From an uncultured Candidatus Saccharibacteria bacterium (GTDB lineage: Bacteria; Patescibacteriota; Minisyncoccia; Phycocordibacterales; XYD1-FULL-46-19): DNA of 64,000 bases. Positions 17,932 through 53,640 of this stretch are shown here, piece after piece. Position numbers and translations under genes: made by a program. Within the stretch, counting starts at the first letter, position 1. Every line of letters starts with the position of its first letter. Under the pieces are notes generated by a model that saw only the letters and a program-made list of their open reading frames with translations, was not told the DNA's origin and did not search any database. Location of the stretch: assembly GCA_964539475.1 (NCBI GenBank), contig CAZIIR010000001.1, forward strand, positions 2,869 to 66,868, written 5' to 3'.

Positions 17932-18008
17932 ACGCCTATAGCTCAGCGGTTAGTAGCGGGGATCTCATAAATCCTAGGTCGTTGGTTCGACTCCAACTAG
18001 GCGCACCA
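17932..18008 (+). tRNA. tRNA with anticodon CAU (Met or Ile2 type), CCA encoded, A1-C72 mismatch
   Basis: The cloverleaf was folded by hand. Acceptor acgccta/taggcgc, T-arm gttgg-TTCGACT-ccaac, anticodon loop CTCATAA, 3' ACCA. Confidence 0.8.
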
Positions 18009-22945: not shown

Positions 22946-23635
22946 ATGAAACTAACTAAATACGATCTTAATTGGGTTTTAAGGCATGTTCCAAAAAACC
23001 TTATTACTATAATTGAAAAGACTCCTAATATTTTTATTGCAGGAGGTTTTATTCGATCATGTGTTGCAAATGAAAAAATCAATGATATTGATCTTTTTGT
23101 ATCCTCTAAAAAAGAAGGTGCTGCTCTTGCGTTTGAGTTAAATAATCATGAAATGCACAGCATTCATGAAACAGATAATGCGTTTACAATTACAAAATAT
23201 AAACCATCAATTCAAATTATTCATAGGTGGGTTTTTGACTGTCCTGAAAAACTAATAGAATCATTTGATTTTACTATTGCAAAATCAGTTGTATTTTATA
23301 AAGACGGTCAATGGGATTCTCTTTGTGATGAATCCTTTTATCCGGACTTGGCTGCTAAAAGACTTGTTTATACTTCACCTCAAAGAGAAGAAGAGGCGGG
23401 AGGATCAATGTTAAGAGTATTAAAGTTTTATCAAAATGGATATAGGATTCCGTTAGATTCACTATCATCTGTTATAACAAGGCTTATTAGTAAAATTGAT
23501 TTTAAATCTTGTAAAAGAGACAATCCAAAAGATACTGACTTTCAATTGTCTAAAGTTATATGTGGTCTTCTTAGGTCTGTTGATCCTAATGTTGATCCAA
23601 CACACGAAGCTCATCTTCCGTCTAAAGGTGAGTAA
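22946..23635 (+). CDS. pol-beta-type nucleotidyltransferase resembling the head domain of CCA-adding enzyme or poly(A) polymerase
   Basis: IAGGFIRS...NDIDLFV (GGxxR...DxD), SFDFTIAKS (RDFTINA-like) and GSMLRVLKFYQNGYRIP (DPLRILRAxRF-like). Confidence 0.55.
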   Translation: MKLTKYDLNWVLRHVPKNLITIIEKTPNIFIAGGFIRSCVANEKINDIDLFVSSKKEGAALAFELNNHEMHSIHETDNAFTITKYKPSIQIIHRWVFDCPEKLIESFDFTIAKSVVFYKDGQWDSLCDESFYPDLAAKRLVYTSPQREEEAGGSMLRVLKFYQNGYRIPLDSLSSVITRLISKIDFKSCKRDNPKDTDFQLSKVICGLLRSVDPNVDPTHEAHLPSKGE

Positions 23636-24020
23636 AGAGCCGCCAGAGCATATAATAAATAGATTCCTGCTTAACAGACTTAATAATGTATGCACTCCTG
23701 ATAGATTCTGTTGTCAAATAAAAGATGGAAAGCTGTATGCTTATGTTGGAGGTAGTGATAAAATCATCTACAATCCAGCTACAGACACTCTTGATTTGCA
23801 ATATATTTATTACGGATACCTGCATCTTAAAAAGTCTAAGTTAAACAAGAAAATATTCAAGGATATTTTTGACATGCTTTCAAATGTCAAAATAGAAAAA
23901 ACTCCAGATCAGATTCTTAAAGAGAAATACGGAATTACATCAAAAAGAGTTAATGGAAAAATTAAAAAAGAAATAATGAAGTATGAAGCACTTAAGCCCA
24001 AAAACATTCCATCCGATTAA
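23628..24020 (+). CDS. hypothetical protein (GTG start preferred; the track gives 23496)
   Basis: No in-frame ATG downstream of the upstream gene's stop. A GTG preceded by AAAGG is in frame. Confidence 0.35.
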   Translation: MSKEPPEHIINRFLLNRLNNVCTPDRFCCQIKDGKLYAYVGGSDKIIYNPATDTLDLQYIYYGYLHLKKSKLNKKIFKDIFDMLSNVKIEKTPDQILKEKYGITSKRVNGKIKKEIMKYEALKPKNIPSD

Positions 24021-24546
24021 TAATAATATATTAGTTAAAAGGTTACAGCCAATGAGAGTTGGCAAGATTATTATTCCTGATCAGACTATTCAAAAGTCTT
24101 TCTATGCAGTAATAATTCGTGTTGGTGAAAAAGTAAAAGATACAGGACTTGTTCCTGATAAGATTATTTTTGTATGCCCAACATCAAGACACAATCAAAA
24201 GATTGATGAGTTTCATTGGATTATTAAAGAGCAAGATATTCATGCTATTCGTCATGGTGAAATTCTTAGACCATTCGGAAATAGAGTTTTCCTTAAGCGT
24301 CTTAATCAAGAAACAAAGATTGGTAGTATAATTATTCCAGACATGCACGAGACTGCCGACCAGTCCTTAATGGGAATATTTGTATTACGAGGAATTAAAA
24401 ACAATGAACCAATTGATATTCCATTAGTTGGTGGAGAGCATGTTAAAATCAATAAGTGGTCAATGGATATTGTTGAAATTGACGTTGATGGTGAGTATTT
24501 TTTATCAGTAAAAACATCACAGCTTGAATATGCTGAACATAATTAA
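23983..24546 (+). CDS. tandem double-domain GroES/Cpn10 co-chaperonin
   Basis: Two ~90-aa halves each align to GroES by eye: ILVKRLQPMRVGKIIIPD...AVIIRVGEKV and RVFLKRLNQETKIGSIIIPD...VGGEHVKI. Confidence 0.6.
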   Translation: MKHLSPKTFHPINNNILVKRLQPMRVGKIIIPDQTIQKSFYAVIIRVGEKVKDTGLVPDKIIFVCPTSRHNQKIDEFHWIIKEQDIHAIRHGEILRPFGNRVFLKRLNQETKIGSIIIPDMHETADQSLMGIFVLRGIKNNEPIDIPLVGGEHVKINKWSMDIVEIDVDGEYFLSVKTSQLEYAEHN

Positions 24547-25111
24547 ATCATTCTGTAGAGTAAGGCAGTTTCCAACTGACCTTGCTTTTTTGATTGGAGT
24601 TGAAGAGTCTTCACTTTTATATTATCTAATTCAAACATATGGCAATCTTAAGTTTGATGGCAATTATCCTAAGATATGGAAAGTAGATACTCTTTCTAAA
24701 CTTCAAGGCCGTGGATTGGTTACAATGATTGCTGATAATGTTTTTATTATCAATTACACAAAGCTGGACCAATTACTATGTCCGTCTGATTTACATATAG
24801 CTGTAATTCCAACATTTCACGATGAACGGTTTGTTGGGCTATGTGAAAAATGGCATCAGATTCTAAAAGAAAAGAATAGAACCAAAACTCTAAAGGAAAT
24901 ATATTTATTATTCAAAGGCAAAGCTCTTGAGGAATCAATAGAGGCATTGTCTAATTCAATTAACAATAGATGGGTAGGATTACACTTCAATGAATCTTCT
25001 AAAGATAATAAGACAGATAGAAGCAGCGGAAAGCCTGGGATTACAAGAGGAGGAGGAGAGCACAACAAAGGAGACGGAAAAGAATACAACACTACAAAGC
25101 GCATTGGATAA
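24524..25111 (+). CDS. hypothetical protein. It overlaps the next gene by 120 nt, and its C-terminus is low-complexity
   Basis: ORF track. Confidence 0.4.
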   Translation: MNMLNIIKSFCRVRQFPTDLAFLIGVEESSLLYYLIQTYGNLKFDGNYPKIWKVDTLSKLQGRGLVTMIADNVFIINYTKLDQLLCPSDLHIAVIPTFHDERFVGLCEKWHQILKEKNRTKTLKEIYLLFKGKALEESIEALSNSINNRWVGLHFNESSKDNKTDRSSGKPGITRGGGEHNKGDGKEYNTTKRIG

Positions 25112-26761: not shown

Positions 26762-27040
26762 TTACAAGTTAATCCTCGCTCTATTCTTCGCCTTCGACTG
26801 GAGGCGAAGATTAGTAATTTTATTAGTGCCTCCAGTTGATATTGGTTTCTTGTGATCTACGTCCTTATTCTTCATCATAGCTGATGCGCGTTTAGGTCCG
26901 TATTTCTTGGTAAGAAACACCTCCATATCACGCCTAGCTTTATTTCGCTGCGACCTCTGCTTTATAGTTTTTTTATTATAAAGCTTGTCTTTTGTGTAGT
27001 CTCTTCCGGTTGACTTATTATGGACTCGTTTCTTCTTCAT
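26762..27040 (-). CDS. HNH endonuclease, last gene of the late operon
   Basis: DVDHKKPISTGGTNKITNLRLQSKAKNR HNH motif. Confidence 0.55.
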   Translation of the reverse strand: MKKKRVHNKSTGRDYTKDKLYNKKTIKQRSQRNKARRDMEVFLTKKYGPKRASAMMKNKDVDHKKPISTGGTNKITNLRLQSKAKNRARINL

Positions 27041-30000
27041 ATGCAGCTAATTGTTCTTCGCGTTCTTTGCCTGATTTTTCGATTAAGCTACTTGCCCTAA
27101 AGTATCTCTTGATGTCTGGTTGTGATACACCAATCACTGCCGCAAGATTTACAAAATCCAGTGGTGATATAGCCTCTGGTTTTTGAAAGAACTTAGAACC
27201 GCTTTCAATAGCATCGACTATTCCTTCCACCGTTCCACCAAAACTTCCACCGATATTAGCAATTGTTCTTTGCTCATATACGGCAGGAAGAAACTCTTGC
27301 ATCTGAATGTTTGCCAACTCTTCACTTAGAAGAGTTACAGTCTTACGGTTTTCAAGAGCCTTGTGTCTTTTGATTAGTTTTTGGATTCGATCAATTTCTC
27401 CTTTTTTCCAAGCCTTGAAGGTTTCAGCCTCTGGTCCGTCAGATCCTACATGAATAATTATATTAGGAACAGCTTCAAGGTTAAACGGAATAAACATGTT
27501 AGATGCTGCATCCTTTACTGTCTTGATTGAAAGAATCCTTGTGTTGTTAGTTCTGTTTTGAATATTCTGAATAACCTTACGATTCTTTTCTCTCATAGAA
27601 ATCTCAGCATTGAGTGTGCGACGCTCATTTTTTGTCATTCTATTTTGAGACTTAGAGTAAAGCTTTTTTAATTCCTCCTCTTCTTCTGGATTCTTCAATG
27701 CATGAACAATAGCGGCAGCCATTCCATACTGAACTGCATATGCCATCATTGTATATGTTACAGATTGAGCAGCAATACCCATCATGTATTTAAATGATTT
27801 GGCTTTTTGTTCTCTACTTACATCTGAATCAAAAAGCCTTCTCATTTCCTTTCCAAAGTTTACAGCGTTATTGATCGAGAACGACCTAAACGCTATTAAT
27901 AAATTTCTTGCAATACTTATTTTAGCATCCTTGTTAGTGAGATACTCACCACGACGAGAAGCATCACCAATACCTATATAACGCTCTGTTGCGTCAATAG
28001 CTTTTATGTATGACACTGGATCGTATGTAAGGTCTTCAAGTCTGACATGAGTTCCTTTTGAGTCCTGTTCAGCATTAAGGTATTCAGCAAGTGCCATAGG
28101 AGCACCTGACAATGTATCAGAAAGCCTGAATGCTTTAAACAGAATATTTTCGATTCCTTTATCAACACCAACTACTGCCCTATACAAATAAGGCATTTCC
28201 TTTTTCATCATTTCAACTAATGAGCTAGGATTAATATCCAGATTAACTGATTTGTCGATTTCTTGGAATTGCTGGCGATGAGTTACTTCAAAGATAACCT
28301 TATCCACAAGTCTTGCTTGATGAGGTTCAAGCATTCCCATTCTGTGTTTTAATAAATATGTTGCAGCTTTAAAATAGTTGCCAATTTTGTGTGGCTCATT
28401 AATGTGCTGAACAAAGTATGGAGTAGTATTTGAAACAAGCTGTGCTGGCAACTGATGTAAACCAGACAATACGCCCTGAGCCCATTTTCTTCCAACCCAG
28501 TTTGTAGCAACATGGTATGAATGCATGTATGATGCTTGAGACATCACATTCTGCCACGTTCCATTCATCGCACTTCTGAATGCATCTGTCCGACCTCTCT
28601 TTTGTTCTGGATCACCTAAGAACTTAGCAAACAATTTTCCATTCTTGTTTTTGTGATTCAGCAATTGAGACATCTCCTGTCTTGCATGTGCTGTAAAATA
28701 ATCATACACAGCAATCCTGCCAAGAGACTCACCGGCATAATTTATATTAAACACAAGAGAACGATTTGTTCCTATTTTTCTTGTTCTCGACTTAGTAGAA
28801 CCAAGTCCAGTTGTATTTGTTCCATAAAATATTTGTCCAGAAGAGAATGATTGAGCATCAGTTAGCATTTGAGCTTTGGCGATATCAAAATCTGTATCAC
28901 CTTCACCTTTGATGATAACTGACATTGTTGGAATGTAGTTCTCGATTTCCTCAAATGGTCTTCCATAAATAAACTCTGTAGTGAACTTAGAAAGAGGTTT
29001 TAGTGCATCATACATCTTAACGATACCATCTGCATATTGGATTCCCTTGTCTCCAATAAATATATTAGCATTCTGGTAGAATTTAGCAACATCTTCTGGT
29101 GTGAAGTCAGAAGTAAGTTGTCCATTTTCTATAGTGTAGTTAATACCAGACAGGAAGTTATCTTCAAGATACTCTTGATGACGCTTTCCTTGTGCATCAA
29201 AGTCTCTATCGTAAACTCCAATAGTATTTTTATTAGAGTCAAGAACCCATTGGACGCTTGCTTTAAATCCCTCTTCAGGAGATTCAACTAATTTTCTTTG
29301 ACGAAGGATTCCAAACATTCCTATCTTGTTAGCCATGTCAGCATCAAGAACACCGTTATAAACATCACTTTGAAGTGATTCAATGTATGGTGTAATAACT
29401 TCTTCGTGATACCGTTTAGCAAGAACAAGACCTTCACGGAATGGTGCTTGAAGACGAGTCAAAAGATCGTAAGAATAACCATCGGTTGCAAGTCGTTCAA
29501 TCTGACTTGAGTTAGATTCAAGTTTAGATATGTCAGAGTTCTTTTTTCTTGTCCCGTATGGGTCACTAAACGTGGCCTCCATGTTTCTAATGATATCTGT
29601 TGTCTCACTACTAATAAATCCCTCAAGACGATTTGGATAGCCATCAGTAACAAGACTAAGAAGTGAGTAATAAACTCTGCGTAAATCTCCACCACTAAGA
29701 GATGTTGCATCCGTAGTAATTAAACTAAGCGCGTATTCATTAAATAGCTTACGCATTATTGCAACTTGTTCTCTTAGAATTGGAATACCATTATCCAAGA
29801 TTGGATTACCTGTCTCTACAAGGCTGCTATCAAGATCAACAACTCCACGGTTAATAATATCACTAATATCATCAATTGCTTCAATAGCTTGGAACTGGAG
29901 ATCAACAACAGCATCCATTGTTGCAATGTCAGAGTCGTTAATAACAACGGATGCAAGATCATCGTTCTTCTCTTGAATAAGGTCTTGAAAGTGTTTTCTC

Positions 30001-33000
30001 GCAGCGCCAGCGTCTTCATTAAAGAATGCAAACTCAGGAAATCCCTCTACTCGACTTGCGTAGAACTCGTATTCGTTTTTGTTAGCTTTCTTTTTATAGT
30101 CGATCAAACGCTGTTCAAGTGTGTCAACAGGAATCCTTTCAGTGGCAGGATTTTCCTGTTTGTTGCGAGTATTAACAAAGTCTTGATAATCAGCCAAGAA
30201 AGCCTCTACGTCATTATCGTTAAGGAATGCGTATGGAACACCTTTGAAAGCGTTGTTGATTTGAATTTCTTTACCCATGAGTTTTTGCTCATAAGTTCTC
30301 TTGATTAGTTTAGCTATTTCCTTAGAAGCTTTGGATTTAGATTGTGTAATAATTTCATTATCAGTCACAATCCAATCAAGATCGTTGTCTTCTGTTGGTT
30401 CTACTGGAGCTTTTTGTTTAGGCTGTGATTTGCTAAAACGAATGTCTGGAGAATTAGAGAATCGTTGAGACAAAGGAATTACATTACCTTGATCGTCTTT
30501 TGTAACAGGGTCTGAGGATTTAAATTGAGAAGAATCAAACCCAGCAATTGCGTCTGCTTCTTGCTCTGCGCTTTTTTCTCGTAAAAGAAAACCATCAAAA
30601 CCAGCTTCCAGTAGTTCTTTTTTTAACTGCCCCTTGTTTAATCTCTCAAAAACTGGACTCTGCATTCCATTGCTTGGCTTGGCCTTAACTCCCAACGATT
30701 GGACAAATGTATCAAATTCCTGGTTGCTAACACTTCCAGATCCAAGCTGCCGAAAATCTGCCGGATTTGAAATATTATGATAAAGACTCAATGATTTATC
30801 TCCAAAAAGTTGAGAATACTTTTTGTTTTCTGTGACGTATATCAACCCAACACCATCTGTCTTAATAGGAGATACCAAAAAACTTCTTCCTGTTGAGGTT
30901 AATATATTTCTAATCCTTCCAAATATATTAAAATCAGAATTTGTTGAATGAATAACCATAGATGGTTTGTATCCAGCCTCTTTAGCAGCCTCATCAACCA
31001 TCTTTTGAGCGGTGTCTAAATCACCAGACTTAACTGCCGCCAAGTATTTTTGATCTTTAACATTATTATTAGGCTGTGATTTACTAAATCTAAGTAGTCC
31101 ACGGTTTTGTGGAACACTGAACATGTATCCGGTGTTGGTGTCTTTATTAAACACAGCAGACTTACCTTTTCCGTGCCTACCAACTGTTACTTTTTTAGGT
31201 TGTGAGTTAGTAAGTTTTTTAAGACCGTTAGGAACGCGCTCGTCGTATGCGGCTTTCATTCCTGACTCTTGTTCTATTTTTGGAACTGATTTTTTTAACA
31301 GATCAGCTCTAACTGTTTCTCCATCATAAGTTGTTAAGCGATAGATATTACCGTCTGGTCCTTCTGATTTTATTCCAGGTATAGCTCCTTCGCTTCCATC
31401 TGCCATTGTATAAGTAGTATCAATATCAGTCCTGGGAATCCAATCATCTGGCATTTTAATGTTACCATTATTATACGATGCATTTTCTATAATATCTCCA
31501 TCTTTTTCTGGATTTGCAAGTTCATAAATATCACCAACTTGATCATGCCCCTCAGTCATCATTGCTGTTTCAGCATCGCTTGTAATAATTTTATCAGCAC
31601 CTTGTTCTTGTGCAAAATTAACAGCGGCTTTAAGTGCAAGTGATTCCCAATAGTTTAGGAGCGGAGATGAAATATCTTCTCCAAGACTTTCCCATTTATC
31701 AATAAGAAGAATATTGTCTTCTTTAGATATTACTTCATTTTCTTTATATTTATAAATATCAACACCAGTATCTTCTGCTTCTCGTTTTGTTAAATGCAAT
31801 GAATTAGACGACCCTTTTTTGCTAATAGTAATAGAATCATCTAAAAGCTCTATTACAAGATCAGATTTTTTATAACCATCTAATCTATTTTTGTCTCTAC
31901 TTAATTTTCCAGCCCAATCGCTTTGAACTTCCCATATTTCAAGAATGCGAGTTGGTTTAGTTGCGGTTGTTCCGTCTGGTAGTTTGTTTCCAGTTTGGTA
32001 TTCATGGATACCACCACGAACGAATGCTAGTTGGTTTGCTTTAACACTACCTTCGTAATGCTGAGATTCAAATTTAGGTTTTGGAGTTACTGTTGCTCCT
32101 GTGTCTCTTACGAATACAGTAATTGTTCTATTTTCATCGTAAATTGAAGACTCAGATGTTGTTACAAAATACCTAGGTTCTGGATATTTATTTTGAAACT
32201 CCTCAAGCTTACCTTCCTTTTCTTCTATTGGAAAGGATTCTTTTACAATATATTTATTATCATATAAAGAATTATCTATTTTATTTAAAGAAGATGATTC
32301 TTCACTTGGAAGTGGAACATTCAAACTCAAATCACCAGACCAAATAAGCTTATGTCCAGGCTCGATTTCTTCACCTTTAAGTTGTTCGTTTGAGTATGGA
32401 TCTACTCCGTATTTTCCGGTGGCAGAGCTATTTTTTGCCGCTAAGAAACTACCGGTAGAATATAGTTCAATATATTCATTAGCAAGTTTCTTTGCATTTT
32501 CTGGAAGTTCTTCTAATTTAACACCACCAAATGTTTTAAATACAGCAGTTTCACCAGTAAACATTGGAGCGTCAGGCGCAAACCCAATGGTTTCTAGTTC
32601 GTGCTGAACAACACCAACTGTTCTGCTTAATGCGCCACCACTAAAATCTAACTTATTTATTACAACAGTAGGAACTGTGTCGATCACTTCCGCCAGTTCC
32701 GACATATTAACACGACCATTTTTTGATAAATCGTTAACAAGTTGTGTCAGTGTATCAACCTCAAACTCAGTAGCTCCTGATTTTTTGATCTTAGCTGCAA
32801 GGTTTTGAGAAGGAAGAGTTCCATCTTTAGCCACAACAAGACCCATTACATTTTCAGGGTCTTTTAGTTGGTCAGCAAGACGAAAATCAAACTGGTTGGT
32901 TGAACGACTAAAGCGAGTTGCTGCTGGAGTTTTGTATAAATACTTATCTCCCATTATAACATTTTTATCACTGTTCATTCCTGCGAACTCAAGAACAGCT

Positions 33001-36000
33001 TTTTGAGATGAATTAAGTTTATACTGCTCATCAACAAGGATTGACGATCCGTTTATGACACGAAGATAACCACGTTTAGCCATTTCTGCATAAACCTGAG
33101 TAACCGTCATTCCTTCTATAGCTTCTTCGCCAATAATGTCAATAGCTTTTCCAAGATGGTCTTGATAACCAACATCGATTATTTTTCCATTAGGCGCAAT
33201 CCAAGCTCCGTATCCACGAATAACAGAATCCATGTAAACTGATTGGTGGGATTTGGAATACTGTATTTCTCCATTTGTTGTTATATCAGAATCAAAAGCG
33301 GTCTGAATAATAATATCAAGATCATTAACTGTCCAGTTTGCTGTCCCTGCTTTCAGGAACTTAATACGAATCCAATTAACAATCTTTTCAATAATTGATT
33401 TTGATTCTTTATCCTTTCCTTCTGTTAGTTTAGCAAAAATTTCATCAACAATTTCATTTTCTGTTAAGTTTTCTTTTGCATATGCAGCACTTGTTCTTTC
33501 CCAAACATTTGAACCGTCTCTCCATTTAAGGGTTTTTAAGAATGTAACTAAATTATTAAACCCTTCTTGGCTAATGCCAGAAAGAACGCCACTTAGTTTA
33601 AGATGACCAACAACTTCATGTTTAAATATTCTTTCTACCGCTTCCACATGTGACTCTCCTTTATGTGGAATAATATTATCAAGAATAATTGTAACATTGC
33701 CTTTTTGGACAAAAGCTTCAACGATGCTCGTAACATCTTCACGATTTAATTCCTCGTGTGTGTTTACGATCTTAAGGTCTTTCAGTCCAACGTCTTTTGC
33801 AAGCTCGTTAATTCTGTCAGTCTGCTCTTTTCTGCGAGCTATGTTTTCAGGAGTGTTTTCGCGTTGTTTGGCAAGAGTAGCTTGTGATTCTTCTCTGAAC
33901 TGCTCAATCTCTTGTTGAAGAATATCTAAAATATCAGGCTCGGATTCTTCAACCGGAGCGGTGTCTTGAACAGGAGCAATGGTTTCTTCAATAGCCTGCT
34001 CGACGGTTTGTTTAGGTGCTTTCTCTTTACCTTTCTTGATTGCAGTTTGAATGCTTTGTGCAAACTTATACAAGTCTCCATCGTAAGATGGAACACCATA
34101 TATTTCTGCAAGCTGTGGAAAGTTAGCTTCTGAAAGAAATCCACGACTAATTAAATTATTAAGACGATCTCCAGTAAAGTCACCTTTTTTAGAAAGTGAA
34201 ACAATCTGCATTAATGTTCCTCGATCAACTTCCTGTGCTGGCTGTTGTTCTGGATTTTCTTTTTTAGCAGTGAGTTCAGCAAGCTTAATTCTTGATGCGC
34301 TTTTTTGGCTTTCTGTATATTCACCACTCTTATCATTAATAACTTTATTATGAAGCGCAATACGATCTTCAATTGAAATTTGAACATTTGGCTGAATACG
34401 AGCCTTGTCTGCTTCTAGTTTTCCTATCCAATCTTTAGAGCGTATTTTTTGTTGTTCGGTTGCATTGTCGTCGTTTAATATTTTGTTGTGATAAGCCAAT
34501 GCCTTATCAATGCTTTCAATAGCTGCGCTTGGATTCTCAGTCTCATTGATCTGGTCAATGGTTTCGATTGTTGGAAGAACTGGTTCTGGTTCTACTGTAG
34601 GTTCTACGGTATCTTCTTCAACAGGCTCTACCGCAGGTGTTTCCACAGGCGTTTCCACAGTTTCTTCAACTGGAGTTTCAGCTTTTTTCTTTTTTCGTGA
34701 CGATGGCTTTTTAACTTTTGGAGCAACAACTTTCTTTCCTTCTGGAGTATTTTTATTAAGCTTTTCTGTTGCTTCATCTATTCTGGTTTGATCAATTGTT
34801 TCTGTTTCAACAACTGGAGCTTGTGTTTTTTCCAACTCATTGTAACGAGTTAGCTCAGTTGGTGTAATAGTATTATTAATCTTTTTTTCAAGCAAGTTTT
34901 CAAACTCTGCTTTATCTTTGTTATCAATAACTTCACTATCATCAACAAGAGAAGTCTTAGGCTTAACTTCTGCTGGATCAATTGCTTCCGCTGGTTCTTT
35001 AGTGGCAACTTCATTAGCTTCTCTGACTTGAGCTAATATTTTTATTTTGTTTCCAGTTACAACGACAGGAACCCACCCAACTTGTGGATTAACAGAAGCT
35101 TCGTATCTTTTAGCTAGTCCTTTAAATTTAACAAATCTCCTGTTAGGTGTTACCTGTAATGTAACAGGTGCTCCTAATGCTTTTATTAGGTTGGCGTTTT
35201 TAACCAATGCCATTCCTTCTTGTTTTACATAAATAACATTATCATTCTTTAGTTTGGTGTCATCATTAAGAGTAACATCAAATGGCTTCTTGGTTTGAAG
35301 CTGCTTATCTTCTCCTTTTAATATGAAATTTGTATCATTAGACTCAAACTCAGTTTCTTCTTGAAAAGCAATAGGACCAGCCGATGTTCCATCATCGTTT
35401 ATCTTTTCAAACAATCCTCTTGCTTTTTTTAACCTTTCAAGTTTATCTTTGTCTTTTACTGGATCAAGGTCTTTTTCAATTTTATTAAGCTCATCGGTAT
35501 ATGGCTTATTTGCAATTCTAATTTTAGACTGCTCTGGAAGAACCTCTCCAAGTCTTTCTTTTAGAGTAGCTTCTGCTTTGTCTTTGATCGGAGTTCCAGA
35601 AGGGTCGAGAGATGGCTTGGTATCTCCCTTAATAATTTTATCAGGAGCTTTTGCTGTGACATTAGAATTAGCTATTTCAATAGCCTTGTCGTAGTTACCC
35701 GCTTTGATAGCATCAAAGATTTTTAACTCTTTAGCTTTTGTGTCAGCAATACTAACTGTTTTACCAGCATCAGTTAATTGTGCAATAGTTGCAGAAACAT
35801 TAGCTTGGTTTGATCCTTTTGTTAATCCAGCTATTCCAGTACCAACCATTGCACCAACTGTTCCTTCGACAGCAAATGAACGAGCAAGCTCTCCGATATT
35901 AGTAGCATTCTTTAAATACTGCTCATCTCCAGTTGCATAGTAATCACCAAGGTTTCCGGCTACATCTGTTCCTACTCCACCAAGCAAGCCTTCGTTTAAA

Positions 36001-36968
36001 GAACCAAGAGTAAATCCCTTAACTACAGATGGTAAATATTCTTTAATAACGGCTCTTTTTGCAGCTTCTGTTGTAGCTGCATTAAATGCGCCAGCAAATC
36101 CTTTTACTTTTCCGAAAGCACCACCAAGAATAGACTCCGCTCCACCGTCAATAATACCGGCAGGAATTGCATTAACTGCGGCATCTTGTGCAACTAATTC
36201 ATTACCAGTTCTTTTAAGTTCACGATTATATGCTTCCGTCATATGACGGGCAGTTGACATCGTAAGAAGCGTTGGAGCAACAAGCTCTGGTGCTCCTGCG
36301 GCAGTCATACCAGCAGACAATGCCATTTGGCTAAGAAAATTACCAAGTCCACCAACTACTTGTGAACTAAGATTATTATCAAACTCTGGATTCTCAACCA
36401 AGTTTTTAGCAAAGAACCTATTGGCTTCTTTGTAGTCAGCAAAAAGATCAACACCAAGACCTCTAATTGCCTGTTCTGTGAATCGTTTAACTGAATCAGT
36501 CAAGAAGTCAGGCATACCACCTGGCTTGTAAGAATCCTTGGCAAGCTCACTCTTAATTAAATTATTAGCAAGGTCTTCGATGTGAAATTCAAAATCTTTT
36601 GCTATTGATGGTGCTTTTTTTGCAGAAGAAGGAACAGCATTATCTCTCCAGTCTTCAATAGACTTAACTCTCTTTTCAACAGGATCGTTAGCGTTTATAT
36701 TAATCTGACCATACAAATCGGCAGCCTGCTCAGGAGTTGGTGTAAAACGAGGAATATTTACATTGTGACGATATGATGTAAATATTTCAGCGGATTTATC
36801 ATTAACATACTTTAAATCCTCATCTTCTTTAATTTCGTTTTCATTAACAAATGTTTTACGAAAAGACTCGAAGGCAAGTGGCTTCCGCTCATCTGGAACA
36901 GAATTAAACTCTTCGCTGGCAAGATAACCTCTTACAATGTCTGGATAGTCAAATGAAGTGAGTGGCAT
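27018..36968 (-). CDS. giant (3316-aa) virion or ejection protein carrying a zincin-like HExxH motif, a Gly-rich N-terminal region, a PT/PE-rich linker and internal repeats
   Basis: One uninterrupted ORF. HEVVGH at residues 1117-1122 (about 33603-33620). A TPVE repeat linker. Duplicated ~35-aa units LAYHNKILNDD and IALHNKVINDK. No DxDGD or T7-like RNAP motifs found by eye. Confidence 0.7.
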   Translation of the reverse strand: MPLTSFDYPDIVRGYLASEEFNSVPDERKPLAFESFRKTFVNENEIKEDEDLKYVNDKSAEIFTSYRHNVNIPRFTPTPEQAADLYGQININANDPVEKRVKSIEDWRDNAVPSSAKKAPSIAKDFEFHIEDLANNLIKSELAKDSYKPGGMPDFLTDSVKRFTEQAIRGLGVDLFADYKEANRFFAKNLVENPEFDNNLSSQVVGGLGNFLSQMALSAGMTAAGAPELVAPTLLTMSTARHMTEAYNRELKRTGNELVAQDAAVNAIPAGIIDGGAESILGGAFGKVKGFAGAFNAATTEAAKRAVIKEYLPSVVKGFTLGSLNEGLLGGVGTDVAGNLGDYYATGDEQYLKNATNIGELARSFAVEGTVGAMVGTGIAGLTKGSNQANVSATIAQLTDAGKTVSIADTKAKELKIFDAIKAGNYDKAIEIANSNVTAKAPDKIIKGDTKPSLDPSGTPIKDKAEATLKERLGEVLPEQSKIRIANKPYTDELNKIEKDLDPVKDKDKLERLKKARGLFEKINDDGTSAGPIAFQEETEFESNDTNFILKGEDKQLQTKKPFDVTLNDDTKLKNDNVIYVKQEGMALVKNANLIKALGAPVTLQVTPNRRFVKFKGLAKRYEASVNPQVGWVPVVVTGNKIKILAQVREANEVATKEPAEAIDPAEVKPKTSLVDDSEVIDNKDKAEFENLLEKKINNTITPTELTRYNELEKTQAPVVETETIDQTRIDEATEKLNKNTPEGKKVVAPKVKKPSSRKKKKAETPVEETVETPVETPAVEPVEEDTVEPTVEPEPVLPTIETIDQINETENPSAAIESIDKALAYHNKILNDDNATEQQKIRSKDWIGKLEADKARIQPNVQISIEDRIALHNKVINDKSGEYTESQKSASRIKLAELTAKKENPEQQPAQEVDRGTLMQIVSLSKKGDFTGDRLNNLISRGFLSEANFPQLAEIYGVPSYDGDLYKFAQSIQTAIKKGKEKAPKQTVEQAIEETIAPVQDTAPVEESEPDILDILQQEIEQFREESQATLAKQRENTPENIARRKEQTDRINELAKDVGLKDLKIVNTHEELNREDVTSIVEAFVQKGNVTIILDNIIPHKGESHVEAVERIFKHEVVGHLKLSGVLSGISQEGFNNLVTFLKTLKWRDGSNVWERTSAAYAKENLTENEIVDEIFAKLTEGKDKESKSIIEKIVNWIRIKFLKAGTANWTVNDLDIIIQTAFDSDITTNGEIQYSKSHQSVYMDSVIRGYGAWIAPNGKIIDVGYQDHLGKAIDIIGEEAIEGMTVTQVYAEMAKRGYLRVINGSSILVDEQYKLNSSQKAVLEFAGMNSDKNVIMGDKYLYKTPAATRFSRSTNQFDFRLADQLKDPENVMGLVVAKDGTLPSQNLAAKIKKSGATEFEVDTLTQLVNDLSKNGRVNMSELAEVIDTVPTVVINKLDFSGGALSRTVGVVQHELETIGFAPDAPMFTGETAVFKTFGGVKLEELPENAKKLANEYIELYSTGSFLAAKNSSATGKYGVDPYSNEQLKGEEIEPGHKLIWSGDLSLNVPLPSEESSSLNKIDNSLYDNKYIVKESFPIEEKEGKLEEFQNKYPEPRYFVTTSESSIYDENRTITVFVRDTGATVTPKPKFESQHYEGSVKANQLAFVRGGIHEYQTGNKLPDGTTATKPTRILEIWEVQSDWAGKLSRDKNRLDGYKKSDLVIELLDDSITISKKGSSNSLHLTKREAEDTGVDIYKYKENEVISKEDNILLIDKWESLGEDISSPLLNYWESLALKAAVNFAQEQGADKIITSDAETAMMTEGHDQVGDIYELANPEKDGDIIENASYNNGNIKMPDDWIPRTDIDTTYTMADGSEGAIPGIKSEGPDGNIYRLTTYDGETVRADLLKKSVPKIEQESGMKAAYDERVPNGLKKLTNSQPKKVTVGRHGKGKSAVFNKDTNTGYMFSVPQNRGLLRFSKSQPNNNVKDQKYLAAVKSGDLDTAQKMVDEAAKEAGYKPSMVIHSTNSDFNIFGRIRNILTSTGRSFLVSPIKTDGVGLIYVTENKKYSQLFGDKSLSLYHNISNPADFRQLGSGSVSNQEFDTFVQSLGVKAKPSNGMQSPVFERLNKGQLKKELLEAGFDGFLLREKSAEQEADAIAGFDSSQFKSSDPVTKDDQGNVIPLSQRFSNSPDIRFSKSQPKQKAPVEPTEDNDLDWIVTDNEIITQSKSKASKEIAKLIKRTYEQKLMGKEIQINNAFKGVPYAFLNDNDVEAFLADYQDFVNTRNKQENPATERIPVDTLEQRLIDYKKKANKNEYEFYASRVEGFPEFAFFNEDAGAARKHFQDLIQEKNDDLASVVINDSDIATMDAVVDLQFQAIEAIDDISDIINRGVVDLDSSLVETGNPILDNGIPILREQVAIMRKLFNEYALSLITTDATSLSGGDLRRVYYSLLSLVTDGYPNRLEGFISSETTDIIRNMEATFSDPYGTRKKNSDISKLESNSSQIERLATDGYSYDLLTRLQAPFREGLVLAKRYHEEVITPYIESLQSDVYNGVLDADMANKIGMFGILRQRKLVESPEEGFKASVQWVLDSNKNTIGVYDRDFDAQGKRHQEYLEDNFLSGINYTIENGQLTSDFTPEDVAKFYQNANIFIGDKGIQYADGIVKMYDALKPLSKFTTEFIYGRPFEEIENYIPTMSVIIKGEGDTDFDIAKAQMLTDAQSFSSGQIFYGTNTTGLGSTKSRTRKIGTNRSLVFNINYAGESLGRIAVYDYFTAHARQEMSQLLNHKNKNGKLFAKFLGDPEQKRGRTDAFRSAMNGTWQNVMSQASYMHSYHVATNWVGRKWAQGVLSGLHQLPAQLVSNTTPYFVQHINEPHKIGNYFKAATYLLKHRMGMLEPHQARLVDKVIFEVTHRQQFQEIDKSVNLDINPSSLVEMMKKEMPYLYRAVVGVDKGIENILFKAFRLSDTLSGAPMALAEYLNAEQDSKGTHVRLEDLTYDPVSYIKAIDATERYIGIGDASRRGEYLTNKDAKISIARNLLIAFRSFSINNAVNFGKEMRRLFDSDVSREQKAKSFKYMMGIAAQSVTYTMMAYAVQYGMAAAIVHALKNPEEEEELKKLYSKSQNRMTKNERRTLNAEISMREKNRKVIQNIQNRTNNTRILSIKTVKDAASNMFIPFNLEAVPNIIIHVGSDGPEAETFKAWKKGEIDRIQKLIKRHKALENRKTVTLLSEELANIQMQEFLPAVYEQRTIANIGGSFGGTVEGIVDAIESGSKFFQKPEAISPLDFVNLAAVIGVSQPDIKRYFRASSLIEKSGKEREEQLAAYEEETSP

Positions 36969-40510: not shown

Positions 40511-41581
40511 TTATCGAATTTTCTTAATCTTTGAAAAGTCTCTAATTGAGCTAACTTGCATTTTAGCTGTGCTATTTGGCCTTTGCTCTCTTACTTCTTT
40601 AGCGAGAAGATTTATTCCTCCAAGTATAAAAGCTTCACCAAGCTGAATATTGTCTTCTGAGTATTTCTTTTGAACACCCTTTGCTATCGAGAGTATAGCA
40701 TTTTTATTATCAGATATTAGTATCTGAGTAGGATCAACAATGCTTGATGGTTTTGATCTTTTAAATAGACCTAATACACAATTGTTTTTAACGCAAGACT
40801 TTGATATTTGATATATCTTGTAGTTAGACGTTACTTCGTATGGCTCAAGCCTTGCTATTAATGTTCCAACATTTGTATCCTTGTTTACTAGGTAGTAATT
40901 AACAGGATTAAGAGTTGGGTCTTTAATGACGTTATAGATGTCTCCAATAATAATATCATTATAGTAAACTTGCTGACCTACAATTGGATACATTACTCCC
41001 TCATTGTATTTAACCTCTTCGTCAGCTAAGTCGCGATCTTCACAAACTATAGGCTTATTTTCTGTTTCTTCTTTATAGTAAGTGTATATTGGTCTTCCAT
41101 TGCATCCAAGAGATGAGACAAGTGTTTTCTTATTCTTCTCACAATCACCACCACATACAGCTATGTAATACTCGCTTTTGCAACCACTAGGTCCACATGG
41201 TTTGCACCATTGGCTATTAGGTTGAAACATTACAGGAGAATCACCGAGATGATAAACATCGTTACTAAAGCCATCTAAAGCTAATGGACTTTCCGCCGGT
41301 CCATTCTTATGGAATATAGCAGCGGTTCCATTTATATTTACAGGCTTAAAGTTTATATTACAACCAAGCAATACATTGTAACCATGGGGCGTAACAATTG
41401 TATTATCTTCTCTTACTGGAGTGTAAAAGAATTTCGTTGAACCATAAAACTTTCCAGATGACCAAATCTCATCTTGAACAAGGCTTAGTGTTTCAAAAAT
41501 ACGCTGCTCATCATTAGGATATGACATCCCAATGTATGGAGCTATAAACTCAGCTATTGATCCTGCTGTTTGATTAGACAT
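40511..41581 (-). CDS. putative tail protein
   Basis: ORF track, operon context. Confidence 0.45.
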   Translation of the reverse strand: MSNQTAGSIAEFIAPYIGMSYPNDEQRIFETLSLVQDEIWSSGKFYGSTKFFYTPVREDNTIVTPHGYNVLLGCNINFKPVNINGTAAIFHKNGPAESPLALDGFSNDVYHLGDSPVMFQPNSQWCKPCGPSGCKSEYYIAVCGGDCEKNKKTLVSSLGCNGRPIYTYYKEETENKPIVCEDRDLADEEVKYNEGVMYPIVGQQVYYNDIIIGDIYNVIKDPTLNPVNYYLVNKDTNVGTLIARLEPYEVTSNYKIYQISKSCVKNNCVLGLFKRSKPSSIVDPTQILISDNKNAILSIAKGVQKKYSEDNIQLGEAFILGGINLLAKEVREQRPNSTAKMQVSSIRDFSKIKKIR

Positions 41582-42012
41582 TATGTTAGTGCTGGTGGTC
41601 TAAGTATATACCAATACATTCTTTGAGTAGCGGTGGCAACTGGTGAATTTATTCCGTATGCATCAAGCTCTGCTACAGTAAGAGCGGCAAGGCCAGGTTT
41701 TAGATTTGCAATTGGAAGACTAAGAAATGGAATGTTAGCAGGGTATCCAGACAACGAGTAATCAACTTGCCACTCTCCATCTATATGTTTACCTATTCCA
41801 TAAGGAAAGCTGGTTTTTATCCAAACAAGCTTTTTATCGTCTCCTTTTGGAGTTTCATCGCTTTCAATAAAATTATTAACAAGGTTTGTTGAAAGCGAAA
41901 GATACTTAATAATAAAATTAAGAAGCTGTTCAGGTCCATCACAAAGACCTTTAAAACTTTCTGGAATAGGTTCAATATCTTTATTTATCGCTGCTGTAAT
42001 TGGTATATTCAT
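41581..42012 (-). CDS. putative tail protein
   Basis: ORF track, overlapping start and stop. Confidence 0.45.
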   Translation of the reverse strand: MNIPITAAINKDIEPIPESFKGLCDGPEQLLNFIIKYLSLSTNLVNNFIESDETPKGDDKKLVWIKTSFPYGIGKHIDGEWQVDYSLSGYPANIPFLSLPIANLKPGLAALTVAELDAYGINSPVATATQRMYWYILRPPALT

Positions 42013-43751
42013 TTTGATATTTTGTAGCTAAATATTTTAGTAGAAGCGCATAGTTTCTTTTCTTTTGGCTTGTCTTCTGTTTTGTATGTTGTCTTGTCGT
42101 AATCTACTATTTTAGCCAATGAAATTAATCTCTTAAACGAGCACCATCCTTTTATTCTTATCAGGTTTTGAATAGTAAAAAACCTTGCTGTCTTATCCTC
42201 TCCAGTTGAAACATTGTCTCTTGATTCTGGACAATTGTCACACGAAATAATATTATTAGACTCGCACTTGCTTGAAGATTTAAACTCAAGTTTAGATGTT
42301 TGCTTAAACTCTTCTGTGTCTGTTGTTCTTGATAAAATCTCTACTGTGACATTGGTCCTTATATCTGACAATGAATAAAACTTATTCTCTGGCGACTTTG
42401 GAAAAAGAGGTTGCGAGTAATCAAAAGACCTTGTTAAGAATTGCGATTCAATATCAACATATTCTCCCTTGTTATTAAAGTCTCTTATCAATGACTCGTC
42501 GTAAACATACAGTCTGTTTTTGCAATCGTGGTCATAAGACAGTATAAGCATTTCCTGCTCAACGTCACCGATAATATTTATATTCCATGGTCTTAATCCA
42601 GTGAATATAGACTCGACAATATCTTGATATTGATCCTTTTGTTTTCCGTAGTATGGATCAGGGGTCTTTACTAGCAATCCATTCCAATACACAAAACCAT
42701 CGCAGTTGGCTTGTGGTGCTATTGTTGTGTATATACTTTTTTCGTATGCTCTTGTATAACAGCTATCAAGATAATGTCTTGAATCATTGTTAAAAAACAA
42801 TGAAGCTTCTACGCTATGATTTGTGTATCTGTCTTTGTTTTGGAAATCAGCCCTTCCTTGGTTTAGAGAAACAAGACCGTAGATTGGGTTTCTAAAATAA
42901 ATATTACCGTTTGATGTTTCAAACGAATTACCAGAAACGGCACCAATTCCAGGAAGTATATTGTCAACAAATCCAGTTCCTTGTTGTGCTGCAAGTCCCC
43001 ATGTTGTTCTTGGTCCTCTTACGTCTGCTGAGTAAAAGTCTTTCTCAGTTGCAAATGCAAGGTTTCCACCTGCTGCATCTCTTGCTATTGTTCCAAGCTT
43101 TCCTATTGCCTGAATAATACTTTCATCTTCTGGAGCAACAACTCCATAGATATTATCAATTATAGCTTCATCAAGAGAAATTGGTTGCTTAATCGTAGAA
43201 GACTCTATTTCTCTTCTGTTTGGTTTAACATACCAAAAGCGATTCTGAACATAGATACCCATTAATCCTGGGCCTATTTCTCTTTTGCTTTTCTTTGCTC
43301 TTTTTACCTCGCCTTTTGTTATGTATAATGGAGCATCAAATCCATTGTTTACAATAGCTCCGTTTGGAACTCTTGTTATCCAACAATGCTTTATACTTGG
43401 AACATTTTGATCTTGAGTATTAAGTATCTTTGCTTTTCTAGTATATTTATTACCAGTTATCTCAAATATCCATCCATCAATAGAATACAAAGAAACAAAA
43501 CTTCCGTCTGTGTCTTTGTATGATCCACAGCCTTGTGGGTTTCCGTTCTCCCAAATTTCTTGATGTGCTGTTACTTGAAATTCAATTGGTATTCTCCTAA
43601 ATCCAAATCTGGTTTGTATACCTTCTCCAGATTTAGGAATAACCTGATTGACACTGTAAACGTATTGGTTTTTACCAAGCAATGAAGGACTAATAGAGGA
43701 ATCCATTCCTCCAGCAAAGCTTACATATCCTTCTGGCTTTAAATCGCTCAC
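42009..43751 (-). CDS. putative tail protein (580 aa)
   Basis: ORF track, operon context. Confidence 0.5.
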   Translation of the reverse strand: MSDLKPEGYVSFAGGMDSSISPSLLGKNQYVYSVNQVIPKSGEGIQTRFGFRRIPIEFQVTAHQEIWENGNPQGCGSYKDTDGSFVSLYSIDGWIFEITGNKYTRKAKILNTQDQNVPSIKHCWITRVPNGAIVNNGFDAPLYITKGEVKRAKKSKREIGPGLMGIYVQNRFWYVKPNRREIESSTIKQPISLDEAIIDNIYGVVAPEDESIIQAIGKLGTIARDAAGGNLAFATEKDFYSADVRGPRTTWGLAAQQGTGFVDNILPGIGAVSGNSFETSNGNIYFRNPIYGLVSLNQGRADFQNKDRYTNHSVEASLFFNNDSRHYLDSCYTRAYEKSIYTTIAPQANCDGFVYWNGLLVKTPDPYYGKQKDQYQDIVESIFTGLRPWNINIIGDVEQEMLILSYDHDCKNRLYVYDESLIRDFNNKGEYVDIESQFLTRSFDYSQPLFPKSPENKFYSLSDIRTNVTVEILSRTTDTEEFKQTSKLEFKSSSKCESNNIISCDNCPESRDNVSTGEDKTARFFTIQNLIRIKGWCSFKRLISLAKIVDYDKTTYKTEDKPKEKKLCASTKIFSYKISK

Positions 43752-51566: not shown

Positions 51567-51588
51567 TCCCCCAATTTTTCATCATCTA

Positions 51589-53640
51589 TTAAGCACAAGT
51601 CACACGAATACTCACAGCACCTTCTCGGAATGCGCATCCGAAACCAGCTTCCGCAGTCTGAATGACATAGGTAAGCGTATCTGGATTAACACTAGAGATT
51701 GTTCCGCTAATAGCAGTGCTGATAATAACACCTTCTTCATCGTAGAAGCCGACGTTAACAGTAGCTCCAACATTGCAGTTCAGAGAGCTGTCAAGAACGA
51801 CCTTGATTGCATCTTCTGCTATTGCATCGTCATCAGTGCTATCAGCACAACTAACAACAGTTCCGTAAGTTGGGGTTGCATCTGGACATCCAATGTATGC
51901 AATGCACTCATCAGCAGCAAGCGCAGAGGCAAGCTTGATAAGAACAGTCCAGTCTGGATTCACTACATTCGGGCGGAAGATTTCGACAATCGTAGCCGCG
52001 CGAACCTTGGTAGTATCTCCAGAATCATCATCATTGATGTGAACCTGAATAGTGCTACCGCAGACACAAGAACCAAGAGGAGATTGATTAGGAGCAATCG
52101 AATCTTGGTTTTCCTTGCGAATCTTAACCATGTAATGAAGATTTGCAGCATCACCACAGGATTTGGTGGAGCATTTAACCTTCCTTACACTGGAGGAGCT
52201 AGTAATATTATTACTAACCTTCGTGTTGTTAGGATTGCAACCAATGGTCAGAATCGAGCAACTCTGAGTCTTTGGAACGATGGTGAACACAGGCTGGAGA
52301 TCGCAAGTATTTGGAGCGCGAAGACGAATCTTTTTAGCGCGAGCAATCATACCCCAACTTGCATCAGGATTAAGCATACGGAAGCCCATTTCATACCGCT
52401 TACGGAAGTGAGGCATGTTAAGGTCTTCGTTACACTCCTTATCGTAATCGTTACGATATTCCCAATCGCCCTTACCGGAGATAGGATGAATTGGCATTCC
52501 TTCGATACCAGTCGAGATAACTGGACGACTAAGGATTTCACCAGCACCCTTACCAATGGCTTGAACAAGGAAGAATGGAGCGTTACGATATTCACGGAAG
52601 TCGTAAACAGAACGAACACCAGTGTCAACCTCAACGTCTTTACGACCCTGAACAACAGCGAGTCCACCTTCGGAGCTTTCTGCAAAGCGAGGAAGGGCTG
52701 GAACAGAGCGCATAATAAAATTACCAATAGTATGACGCTCTTGGTCTTCATACACAGAGCCGTTCAACATCGGCACTTTTTGTGTGTATTTAGAACGCTC
52801 GATATACTCTGGATTATCAAGGATTTCCCTCTTATACCAGTCTTCTGGATACCAGAACTCAAACAATGGCTCACCACGCTGACCCTTAGCAATATAGTTA
52901 GGATTGCGAGAATCAGTCAATGCGGAGCCGAAGTTATCCAAGAAGGACAAGTCAACAGGCATGATGTTGCTTGGGTTTCCAACCTGAGGATACAACGGAT
53001 TCATGTAAGAGTAGCGATACCCTTGCAGAGCATTGTATGGACTAAAGTTTTCAACTGGAACAATATTGCCAGAACCATCGTTCTCGACTTCAAGAGCCCA
53101 TTTGTGACCAGTCATCCGAATGAGAGCCATGGTATAGAATATATTCATTACCTGCTCGTCAACAGAGAACCGCTCCTTCACAATCATTTCGGCAATTTGC
53201 TTTGCCTGCATGGAAGTGCGGATATTAGCGATACACATACGACGGGTTTTGAAGCCGGTCTTATACATTTCCAATTCAGGAATAGCAGAGATGCCTCCCT
53301 GTGGAATTTCGCAGTAATCCGTATGACATTCATTAGCAGAACCAGGAGAGCAAATCTCCATGGAACGCTGAAAGATCCCCATGTCAAAGGGAATATGAGC
53401 AGAGTGATAAACTCGACCCAATTCGGTTGTTCCGCTCCAGTCTTTCCACTCACGAACTGGAAACAGTCCGGTGAGGTATTTATACATGGAGTCATACATG
53501 ACTTTCATTTGTTCCACCTTCTCGCTCCAAAGAGCGTTAGGTCCGTCTTTAAAAACCAAGTCAATAACTTGGTCGCGAGACATGTCGTCTCCACAGGCTT
53601 CTACCTGATCTATCCATTCGTCTGATGTTAAGTGTGGCAT
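51589..53640 (-). CDS. major capsid protein candidate with a Cys/Ser/Thr-rich C-terminal extension
   Basis: Position after the scaffold gene, size, operon orientation and composition. The 725-aa antisense ORF is rejected. Confidence 0.5.
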   Translation of the reverse strand: MPHLTSDEWIDQVEACGDDMSRDQVIDLVFKDGPNALWSEKVEQMKVMYDSMYKYLTGLFPVREWKDWSGTTELGRVYHSAHIPFDMGIFQRSMEICSPGSANECHTDYCEIPQGGISAIPELEMYKTGFKTRRMCIANIRTSMQAKQIAEMIVKERFSVDEQVMNIFYTMALIRMTGHKWALEVENDGSGNIVPVENFSPYNALQGYRYSYMNPLYPQVGNPSNIMPVDLSFLDNFGSALTDSRNPNYIAKGQRGEPLFEFWYPEDWYKREILDNPEYIERSKYTQKVPMLNGSVYEDQERHTIGNFIMRSVPALPRFAESSEGGLAVVQGRKDVEVDTGVRSVYDFREYRNAPFFLVQAIGKGAGEILSRPVISTGIEGMPIHPISGKGDWEYRNDYDKECNEDLNMPHFRKRYEMGFRMLNPDASWGMIARAKKIRLRAPNTCDLQPVFTIVPKTQSCSILTIGCNPNNTKVSNNITSSSSVRKVKCSTKSCGDAANLHYMVKIRKENQDSIAPNQSPLGSCVCGSTIQVHINDDDSGDTTKVRAATIVEIFRPNVVNPDWTVLIKLASALAADECIAYIGCPDATPTYGTVVSCADSTDDDAIAEDAIKVVLDSSLNCNVGATVNVGFYDEEGVIISTAISGTISSVNPDTLTYVIQTAEAGFGCAFREGAVSIRVTCA

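Follow-up and report, generated by a model that had tools for sequence, protein, structure and literature searches.

The question raised by this locus is whether a single gene encodes two GroES co-chaperonin domains in one chain and, if it does, how such a chain could serve a chaperonin ring of seven-fold symmetry. The gene lies at 23983..24546 on the plus strand of a 64,000-nucleotide stretch of contig CAZIIR010000001.1 (GCA_964539475.1); this whole stretch is referred to below as the window, and coordinates are given in it unless another locus is named. The product is a covalently doubled GroES/Cpn10. It is read here as a phage co-chaperonin of two head-to-tail GroES domains that is expressed from a replication operon, caps host GroEL and is independent in origin of plastid Cpn20, and a probability of roughly 65% was assigned to this reading. 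What is new is the convergent, phage-borne Cpn20-like co-chaperonin; the tandem Cpn10 design itself is known and has been described mainly in chloroplasts. Textbooks know covalent doubling of GroES from chloroplasts and apicoplasts alone.

Gene and domain architecture

The gene and its two domains (lengths in amino acids, aa; isoelectric point, pI) were placed as follows.

23983..24546, plus strand: tandem Cpn10 (double GroES) co-chaperonin gene; ATG start, 187 aa, 21.6 kDa, pI 8.6
23983..24258, plus strand: N-terminal Cpn10 domain, aa 1-92; 31.7 bits in Pfam on its own, hmmalign to GroES, DSSP of the AlphaFold2 model
24259..24543, plus strand: C-terminal Cpn10 domain, aa 93-187; 25.2 bits in Pfam on its own

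The open reading frame (ORF) is single and uninterrupted, without internal stop or frameshift. Both neighbouring ORFs run into it in an operon-like packing, the one upstream (23589..24020) by 38 nt and the one downstream (24524..25111) by 23 nt. The whole protein was compared with the Pfam Cpn10 profile (PF00166; 93 positions, gathering score 21.1 bits) and scored 52.3 bits in two stretches. Each half also exceeded the gathering score when searched alone, residues 1-92 at 31.7 bits (E 1.6e-7, profile positions 2-92) and residues 93-187 at 25.2 bits (E 1.7e-5, profile positions 2-87). PHROG 3188 (‘co-chaperonin GroES’) matched both halves, and the two halves were 33% identical to each other over 45 residues (BLASTP, E 1e-6) that cover the N-terminal strand and the mobile loop. 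The C domain is the better conserved and more GroES-like of the two, its best PDB sequence matches being Thermus Cpn10 and other GroES chains. The similarity is to bona fide GroES and not to the GroES-like domains of the alcohol dehydrogenase (ADH) type.

A first-pass annotation, made from the letters of the window, had proposed a two-domain fused GroES and had named the Pfam Cpn10 search as the check, with a single recognisable domain as the contrary outcome; with both halves above the gathering score, the fusion is confirmed. The motifs cited there were likewise present in both domains (ILVKRL and FLKRL; GKIIIP and GSIIIP; G48 and G137).

Mobile loops, roof and linker

Each domain was aligned (hmmalign) to a bacterial GroES profile together with E. 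coli GroES. Loop conservation was counted over 41 diverse family members. The loops were located as follows.

24043..24102, plus strand: N-domain mobile loop, aa ~21-40 (...PMRVGKIIIPDQTIQKSF...), with the tripeptide I29-I30-I31; aligned with the GroES loop E16-R33 and its I25-V26-L27
24304..24372, plus strand: C-domain mobile loop, aa ~108-130 (NQETKIGSIIIPDMHETADQSLM), with the tripeptide I116-I117-I118; low model confidence (predicted local distance difference test, pLDDT)

The strand motif R/H-P-x-x-N-x-(I/V)-(L/F)-(V/L)-K-R is kept in both domains. The G-K-I-I-I-P of the N domain and the G-S-I-I-I-P of the C domain fall on G24-I25-V26-L27 of GroES, with which GroES binds to helices H and I of GroEL. 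Both loops carry the GroEL-binding signature, and binding itself is predicted. Across the family the C-loop motif G-G-I-I-I-P is almost invariant (I116 in 39/41, a hydrophobic residue at 117 in 39/41, I118 in 31/41 and P119 in 35/41) and is followed by a family-specific D-Q-(S/T)-L motif (Q127 in 40/41), which reads D-Q-S-L in the window protein. In the N loop, I29 was found in 33/41 members and P32 in 36/41, with leucine or isoleucine at position 31. Three residues, W159, R106 and G137, are invariant family-wide; W159, in the C domain, aligns with the cavity-facing Tyr71 of GroES. The N domain has conserved motif residues of its own (P11, I12, N13, G27, I29, P32, D33, Q37 and F40).

Compared with the GroES loop, the N loop is ~2 residues shorter and the C loop about equal, and neither is lengthened as in T4 gp31. 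The roof segments are reduced. That of the N domain has 12 residues (family range 9-13) against 19 in E. coli GroES and is predicted without roof strands (DSSP of the model), and that of the C domain has 13 residues (family range 9-25) against 17, with a short hairpin in the model. This shortening is the sole cage-relevant difference that was seen; it could widen the roof aperture, above all at the N domain, and is weak evidence for an enlarged cavity. There is essentially no linker, the segment A88..R96 measuring 6-9 residues across the family.

Predicted structure

The AlphaFold2 model, built with a 41-sequence family alignment, had a mean pLDDT of 85 and a predicted TM-score (pTM) of 0.79 and contained two GroES barrels. 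Low confidence was confined to residues ~21-40 and ~111-130, the positions of the mobile loops, and to the first ten residues; block-mean pLDDT was 61-65 in the N mobile loop versus at least 85 in almost all other blocks. Confinement of low pLDDT almost entirely to the mobile loops is as expected, since the loops of free GroES are disordered and become ordered only on GroEL.

The top full-length Foldseek match in the PDB was Chlamydomonas Cpn20 (7ekq_R; E 5e-6, TMq 0.65, TMt 0.63, 193 aligned columns), followed by Chlamydomonas Cpn23 (7ekq_Q), which is also two-domain. Later matches comprised dozens of GroES, Hsp10 and Cpn10 chains that covered one domain each (target-normalised TM 0.6-0.73), and T4 gp31 (1g31) was a weak match at rank 26 (E 2.7e-3). 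When the family profile was compared with PDB sequences, Cpn20 was again best, in one continuous alignment over both domains (E 6.5e-12). The likeness to chloroplast Cpn20 drawn in the first pass thus holds for the full-length structure as well as for the profile. Because Cpn20 in 7EKQ sits within a dome of GroES-like domains and is matched over its full length, the two domains of the model are placed like ring neighbours, and they are predicted to lie side by side like adjacent subunits of a GroES ring. The further suggestion that doubling would give an unusual lid geometry and an enlarged cavity was not upheld: the model superposes on Cpn20 in an ordinary seven-domain dome (TM 0.65), and the loops are not lengthened.

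The same structural match is the starting point for a role unrelated to GroEL, in which the protein would regulate a protease or another ring ATPase, or would act as a structural or assembly factor that reuses the beta-barrel. Such a role is unlikely, because the best-conserved element of the family is the GroEL-binding loop motif, both loops appear as disordered mobile loops in the AlphaFold2 model, and the similarity is to bona fide GroES and not to ADH-type domains. What speaks for it is that 7ekq, the closest solved structure, is a Cpn20/23/11 complex bound to ClpP (preprint 10.1101/2021.07.26.453741), the Chlamydomonas Cpn11/20/23 complex docking on ClpP, and that moonlighting roles of Cpn20 are discussed and provide a precedent (PMC5780408). 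The invariant features that are foreign to GroES (D-Q-S-L after the C loop, W159 and R106) also suggest some specialisation.

Known co-chaperonins and independent origin

Plastid Cpn20/Cpn21 proteins (Chlamydomonas CPN20 and CPN23 in 7EKQ, Arabidopsis Cpn20 and Plasmodium apicoplast Cpn20) likewise consist of two head-to-tail Cpn10 domains in ~20 kDa, both with mobile loops, and the phage protein shares with Cpn20 the symmetry problem posed by a seven-fold chaperonin ring. It differs in having no transit peptide or N-terminal extension and in a linker that is about 4 residues shorter in the alignment of the family profile with Cpn20. Chlamydomonas also has a partner, CPN11, whereas no single-domain Cpn10 partner was found in the 64-kb window; host GroES could fill that role.

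Descent from plastid Cpn20 was rejected on profile cross-scores. The N and C domains of Cpn20 scored 67.5 and 82.7 bits on the bacterial GroES profile, but only 29 and 28 bits on the phage N profile and 20 and 23 bits on the phage C profile, with no preference of N for N or of C for C. The phage domains scored 28.5 and 31.1 bits against generic GroES versus 22.9 and 19.0 bits against the sister domain. From these cross-scores the duplication is old and independent of plastid Cpn20, and the tandem architecture appears, at the level of sequence profiles, to be convergent with it.

Bacterial GroES/Cpn10 (E. coli 1AON, Thermus 4V4O, Hydrogenophilus/Hydrogenobacter 8WUW) has the same fold, the same R-P-x-G-x-R-V-x-V-K-R start and the same G-G-I-(I/V)-(I/L)-P loop motif. 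The phage protein departs from it in its two domains per chain, shorter roofs, tryptophan in place of Tyr71 in the C domain, D-Q-S-L motif and basic pI. T4 gp31 and RB49 CocO are phage-encoded GroES substitutes too, and the N domain is reminiscent of gp31 in that its roof hairpin is missing or shortened; gp31, however, forms heptamers of one-domain chains whose mobile loop is lengthened, and the tandem protein has two domains and loops that are not lengthened. Lids of the gp31/CocO type cooperate with host GroEL, with the capsid protein as their classical client (PMC5780408).

Two-domain proteins were also found among known viruses. In BFVD, four viral UniProt entries matched the full two-domain model (A0A516LTQ1, A0A516L046 with 304 aa, A0A516LJK4 and S0A356). 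The last of these is ‘Chaperonin cpn10’ of the cultured Cellulophaga phage phi18:3 (Pachyviridae), whose predicted structure matched the whole model (TMq 0.58, 211 columns) and which agrees in length and organism with phi18:3 gp096 (200 aa, ‘co-chaperonin GroES’). The sequence relation of gp096 to the window family is marginal (hhalign probability 22%), and Pfam detects only its C half; gp096 adjoins a terminase gene, whereas the window gene lies in a replication module. The first-pass annotation had implied that a doubled co-chaperonin is unique among phages. The contrast with single-domain gp31 and CocO stands, but uniqueness does not, given more than 100 clusters at 50% identity and a few viral two-domain entries in UniProt. 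Besides gp096 (41458-42060 in NC_021794, locus L011), phi18:3 encodes a separate 84-aa GroES, gp080 (31108-31362). By analogy with Chlamydomonas, this pair could be a viral 2+2+2+1 lid system.

Chaperonin partner and proposed lid

No Cpn60 was found among the large ORFs of the window, and its six-frame translation gave no match to GroEL (phmmer with E. coli GroEL as query). A Pfam scan of the 86 other ORFs returned no Cpn60 or Cpn10 among the matches listed (25 of 31 families, the unlisted ones ranking below E 0.003). Six-frame scans with hidden Markov models (HMMs) of the family N domain, the family C domain and bacterial GroES detected no second Cpn10 domain in the 64-kb window, the bacterial GroES HMM being of limited sensitivity in that it missed distant tandem members in two related loci (L004 and L005) that Pfam detects. 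A phage-encoded GroEL partner was rejected for the window by the Cpn60 scans of ORFs and six-frame translation. With no GroEL in the window, the partner is presumably host GroEL; with no single-domain GroES there, any single-domain subunit would presumably be host GroES, unless it is encoded beyond the window.

In the proposed mechanism, several copies of the tandem protein would assemble into a dome-shaped lid that caps a host GroEL ring, each chain would make contact with a neighbouring pair of GroEL apical domains, and the host chaperonin would be diverted or adapted to fold phage proteins. Because seven-fold GroEL is not divisible into two-domain chains, the lid would be made either of three chains and one host GroES (7 domains) or of a trimer or tetramer (6 or 8 domains, with one site unmatched). 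GroES-like lids of 6, 7 or 8 domains function with the chaperonin, and concatamers of 6 or 8 domains work with one GroEL subunit left unbound or one lid domain excluded (PMC5780408). Cpn20 forms functional homo-oligomers (tetramers for Arabidopsis Cpn20), PfCpn20 complements GroES in E. coli, and the native algal lid is a seven-domain hetero-oligomer, formed in Chlamydomonas by Cpn20/23 and Cpn11 (PMC5780408). On this analogy, 3+1 lids with host GroES, trimers or tetramers would be conceivable for the phage protein.

The same even domain number, mismatched to seven-fold GroEL, could instead suit a dominant-negative lid or host-shutoff factor, whose two tethered loops would bind host GroEL avidly and block or slow its cycle, either to starve the host or to hold GroEL for the phage. 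This was judged quite improbable. Blocking GroEL would be self-defeating for phages, which generally need host GroEL for morphogenesis, and the phage lids T4 gp31 and RB49 CocO assist folding. Compatible with it are the GroEL-binding motifs kept in both domains, a gene position in an early or replication-type module and not in the morphogenesis module, and a basic pI of 8.6, unlike that of acidic GroES; yet tandem Cpn20 and the 6- and 8-domain concatamers, which have the same mismatch, are productive co-chaperonins (PMC5780408).

Capping of host GroEL by a tandem phage lid would be a third phage chaperonin strategy, beside single-domain lids of the gp31/CocO type and phage-encoded GroEL homologues, and bears on how viruses re-tune the host chaperonin. 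How an even number of lid domains is accommodated on a seven-fold ring is still debated for chloroplasts and apicoplasts. A convergent phage version that works with ordinary bacterial GroEL would offer a two-component system (host GroEL and one 21-kDa protein) for the study of lid asymmetry and of mixed host/phage lids.

Capsid protein as candidate client

The following features bear on the client of the proposed lid.

51589..53640, minus strand: gene for a 683-aa (76.1 kDa) major capsid protein of the HK97 fold, enlarged by about 400 residues; candidate chaperonin client
54003-55160, minus strand: 385-aa protein very rich in lysine (68) and glutamate (49), directly upstream of the capsid gene

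If T4 gp31 and gp23 are taken as the model, the 76-kDa major capsid protein would be the most plausible client. The 683-aa candidate named in the first pass was identified as an HK97-fold major capsid protein. In the T4 system, gp31 is a phage lid that expands the chamber for gp23 (PMC5780408). The same review puts the capacity of the GroEL-GroES cage at ~60 kDa; the 76-kDa capsid protein exceeds this. A large capsid protein is plausible, by analogy, as a chaperonin client. The tie between capsid protein and Cpn10 is one of co-occurrence in the lineage; for example, the longest contigs given for two relatives (P0158 and P0338) have the same length, 60,784 bp, and both loci reach a 3,532-aa ORF.

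Several points weigh against a tandem lid on host GroEL that serves the capsid protein. The gene lies among replication genes, away from the capsid gene, and the client could be another protein, such as a helicase or a portion of the giant protein (3,316 aa) described below; a 76-kDa client may in any case exceed any cis cavity. With loops that are not lengthened, cage enlargement in the manner of gp31 is not indicated. The middle residue of the N tripeptide varies in the family (I, H, A, Y, V or Q) and is non-hydrophobic in many members, so that binding through the N loop may be weaker in some of the members; the window protein has I-I-I. The tandem protein is basic (pI 8.6), and E. coli GroES is acidic. 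Finally, related contigs reach ~72 kb against the 64 kb of the window, which may thus fall short of the complete genome, and a single-domain GroES or a GroEL may lie outside it.

The capsid ORF is fully overlapped by an antisense ORF of 725 aa (51448-53625, plus strand). Codon-usage log-odds were +0.19 for the minus strand versus -0.21 for the plus strand, and a homolog search, made with the minus-strand product only, gave 87 homolog clusters at 32-94% identity, most of 660-720 aa. The plus-strand ORF is a shadow ORF, remarkably long at 37% G+C, and would mislead gene callers that select the longest ORF. Over 50 homologs of the capsid protein, 9 cysteines were invariant and 5 nearly so (C104, C135, C445, C467, C494, C524, C526, C578, C584 and others). 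Many of the conserved cysteines fall in the C-terminal third, which is rich in beta structure, and may bind metal or form disulfide cross-links. The lysine- and glutamate-rich 385-aa protein is probably the scaffolding protein. Genes of 715, 186 and 788 aa, without PHROG or Pfam match, precede it and probably include terminase and portal.

Family extent and selection

A word-index search gave five close relatives, each 181-187 aa long. Their profile, used in an exhaustive HMMER search, retrieved 419 cluster representatives at E <= 1e-3, of which 51 were at E <= 1e-10; counts from the family search are of representatives of 50% identity clusters. Most of the relatives found by HMMER were 175-215 aa long and were matched across both domains. 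When 159 family proteins were rescanned with the domain HMMs, two Cpn10 domains were found in 118, one in 39 and three in 2; many of the one-domain members are fragments or ordinary GroES. The tandem architecture is kept down to about 25% identity. Codon differences from a 95%-identical relative were synonymous in 22 cases and non-synonymous, but conservative, in 4, a sign of purifying selection. The two-domain design is old and diverse, and it is under selection.

In the remote relatives P0010, P0046 and phi18:3 gp096, Pfam detects the C half only. This and the more divergent N domain could recall read-through of two neighbouring GroES genes, or a duplicate in decay with one working domain, but an artefact of annotation or assembly has next to no chance of being correct, given a single ORF without stop or frameshift, a 175-215 aa two-domain architecture in 118/159 representatives from independent assemblies, purifying selection on both domains, conserved motifs proper to the N domain and a confident AlphaFold2 model of both barrels.

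No match among GenBank phages was obtained with the tandem protein (tblastn), with 10 kb of the window (megablast), or with the distant member P0010 and the 715-aa ORF (both tblastn). The helicase gave only matches of ~30% identity to unrelated phages (tblastn), which are uninformative for taxonomy. When a family alignment was used to look for related loci, IMG/VR yielded single-domain GroES only, and GTDB genomes yielded no match. Apart from reviews of Cpn20, no description of a tandem or double GroES in phages was found in the open-access literature, a survey of virioplankton chaperonins (PMC5649160) included. The tandem proteins apparently form a sizeable, undescribed family in phage-like metagenome contigs. 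The phage lineage that the family marks is widespread, is essentially without annotation and encodes a 76-kDa capsid protein and a giant protein of ~3,300 aa.

Two metagenomic proteins, 300 and 307 aa long (P0065, at 2230-3132 of locus L012, and P0142), carry three Cpn10 domains in one chain; Pfam gave three stretches in each, at 133 and 147 bits. The 304-aa BFVD entry A0A516L046 may be another triple-Cpn10 protein. Two triple chains and one single domain would also total seven. A tentative extension, to which well under even odds were given, is that the tandem and the rarer triple Cpn10 proteins are asymmetric lids on host GroEL invented independently by phages (for instance three double chains with one host GroES subunit), in which only some domains would contribute roof hairpins and the cage would be re-tuned or opened for the 76-kDa capsid protein, which exceeds the usual size limit. 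If true, these lids would be a bacterial or phage counterpart of chloroplast Cpn20 and a tractable model for the puzzle of seven-fold versus even symmetry.

Genomic context and host

Two further features of the window describe the surroundings of the tandem Cpn10 gene.

27018-36968, minus strand: giant ORF of 3,316 aa, just downstream of the tandem Cpn10 gene and followed by the structural block
17932-18008, plus strand: a single tRNA-Met (CAT) gene, inside the replication block

The plus-strand block that holds the tandem Cpn10 gene serves replication and nucleotide metabolism; its products include a UvrD-like helicase, an SF2 helicase, a DHH phosphoesterase, a nucleotidyltransferase and a weak match to DnaA/DnaC-like ATPases. 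The giant ORF had no Pfam or PHROG match, and most structural proteins had none either. The same arrangement was found in relatives at 25-52% identity (contigs of 17 to 61 kb) wherever the contig extends far enough: the tandem Cpn10 gene stands near the end of the plus-strand block and faces a convergent giant ORF of 3,328, 3,507 or 3,532 aa, or one that is truncated where the contig ends. A homolog of the giant ORF in one related locus (L013, 5911-11279) carries the Pfam domains ART-PolyVal and LPD23. The giant protein may be a ‘polyvalent’ protein delivered with the virion.

Shine-Dalgarno sequences were found upstream of 7/87 called genes, which equals random expectation, and the leaders are A-rich. 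The lack of Shine-Dalgarno enrichment and the G+C content of the window (36.7%) fit a Bacteroidota-type host. Among the other ORFs scanned with Pfam, one matched HAD_SAK_2, the ‘Swiss Army Knife’ HAD domain of RNA repair (E 1.5e-18), one or two matched the metalloprotease profiles Astacin and Matrixin (E ~1e-6), and matches to QSregVF_b and DUF3310 were also obtained.

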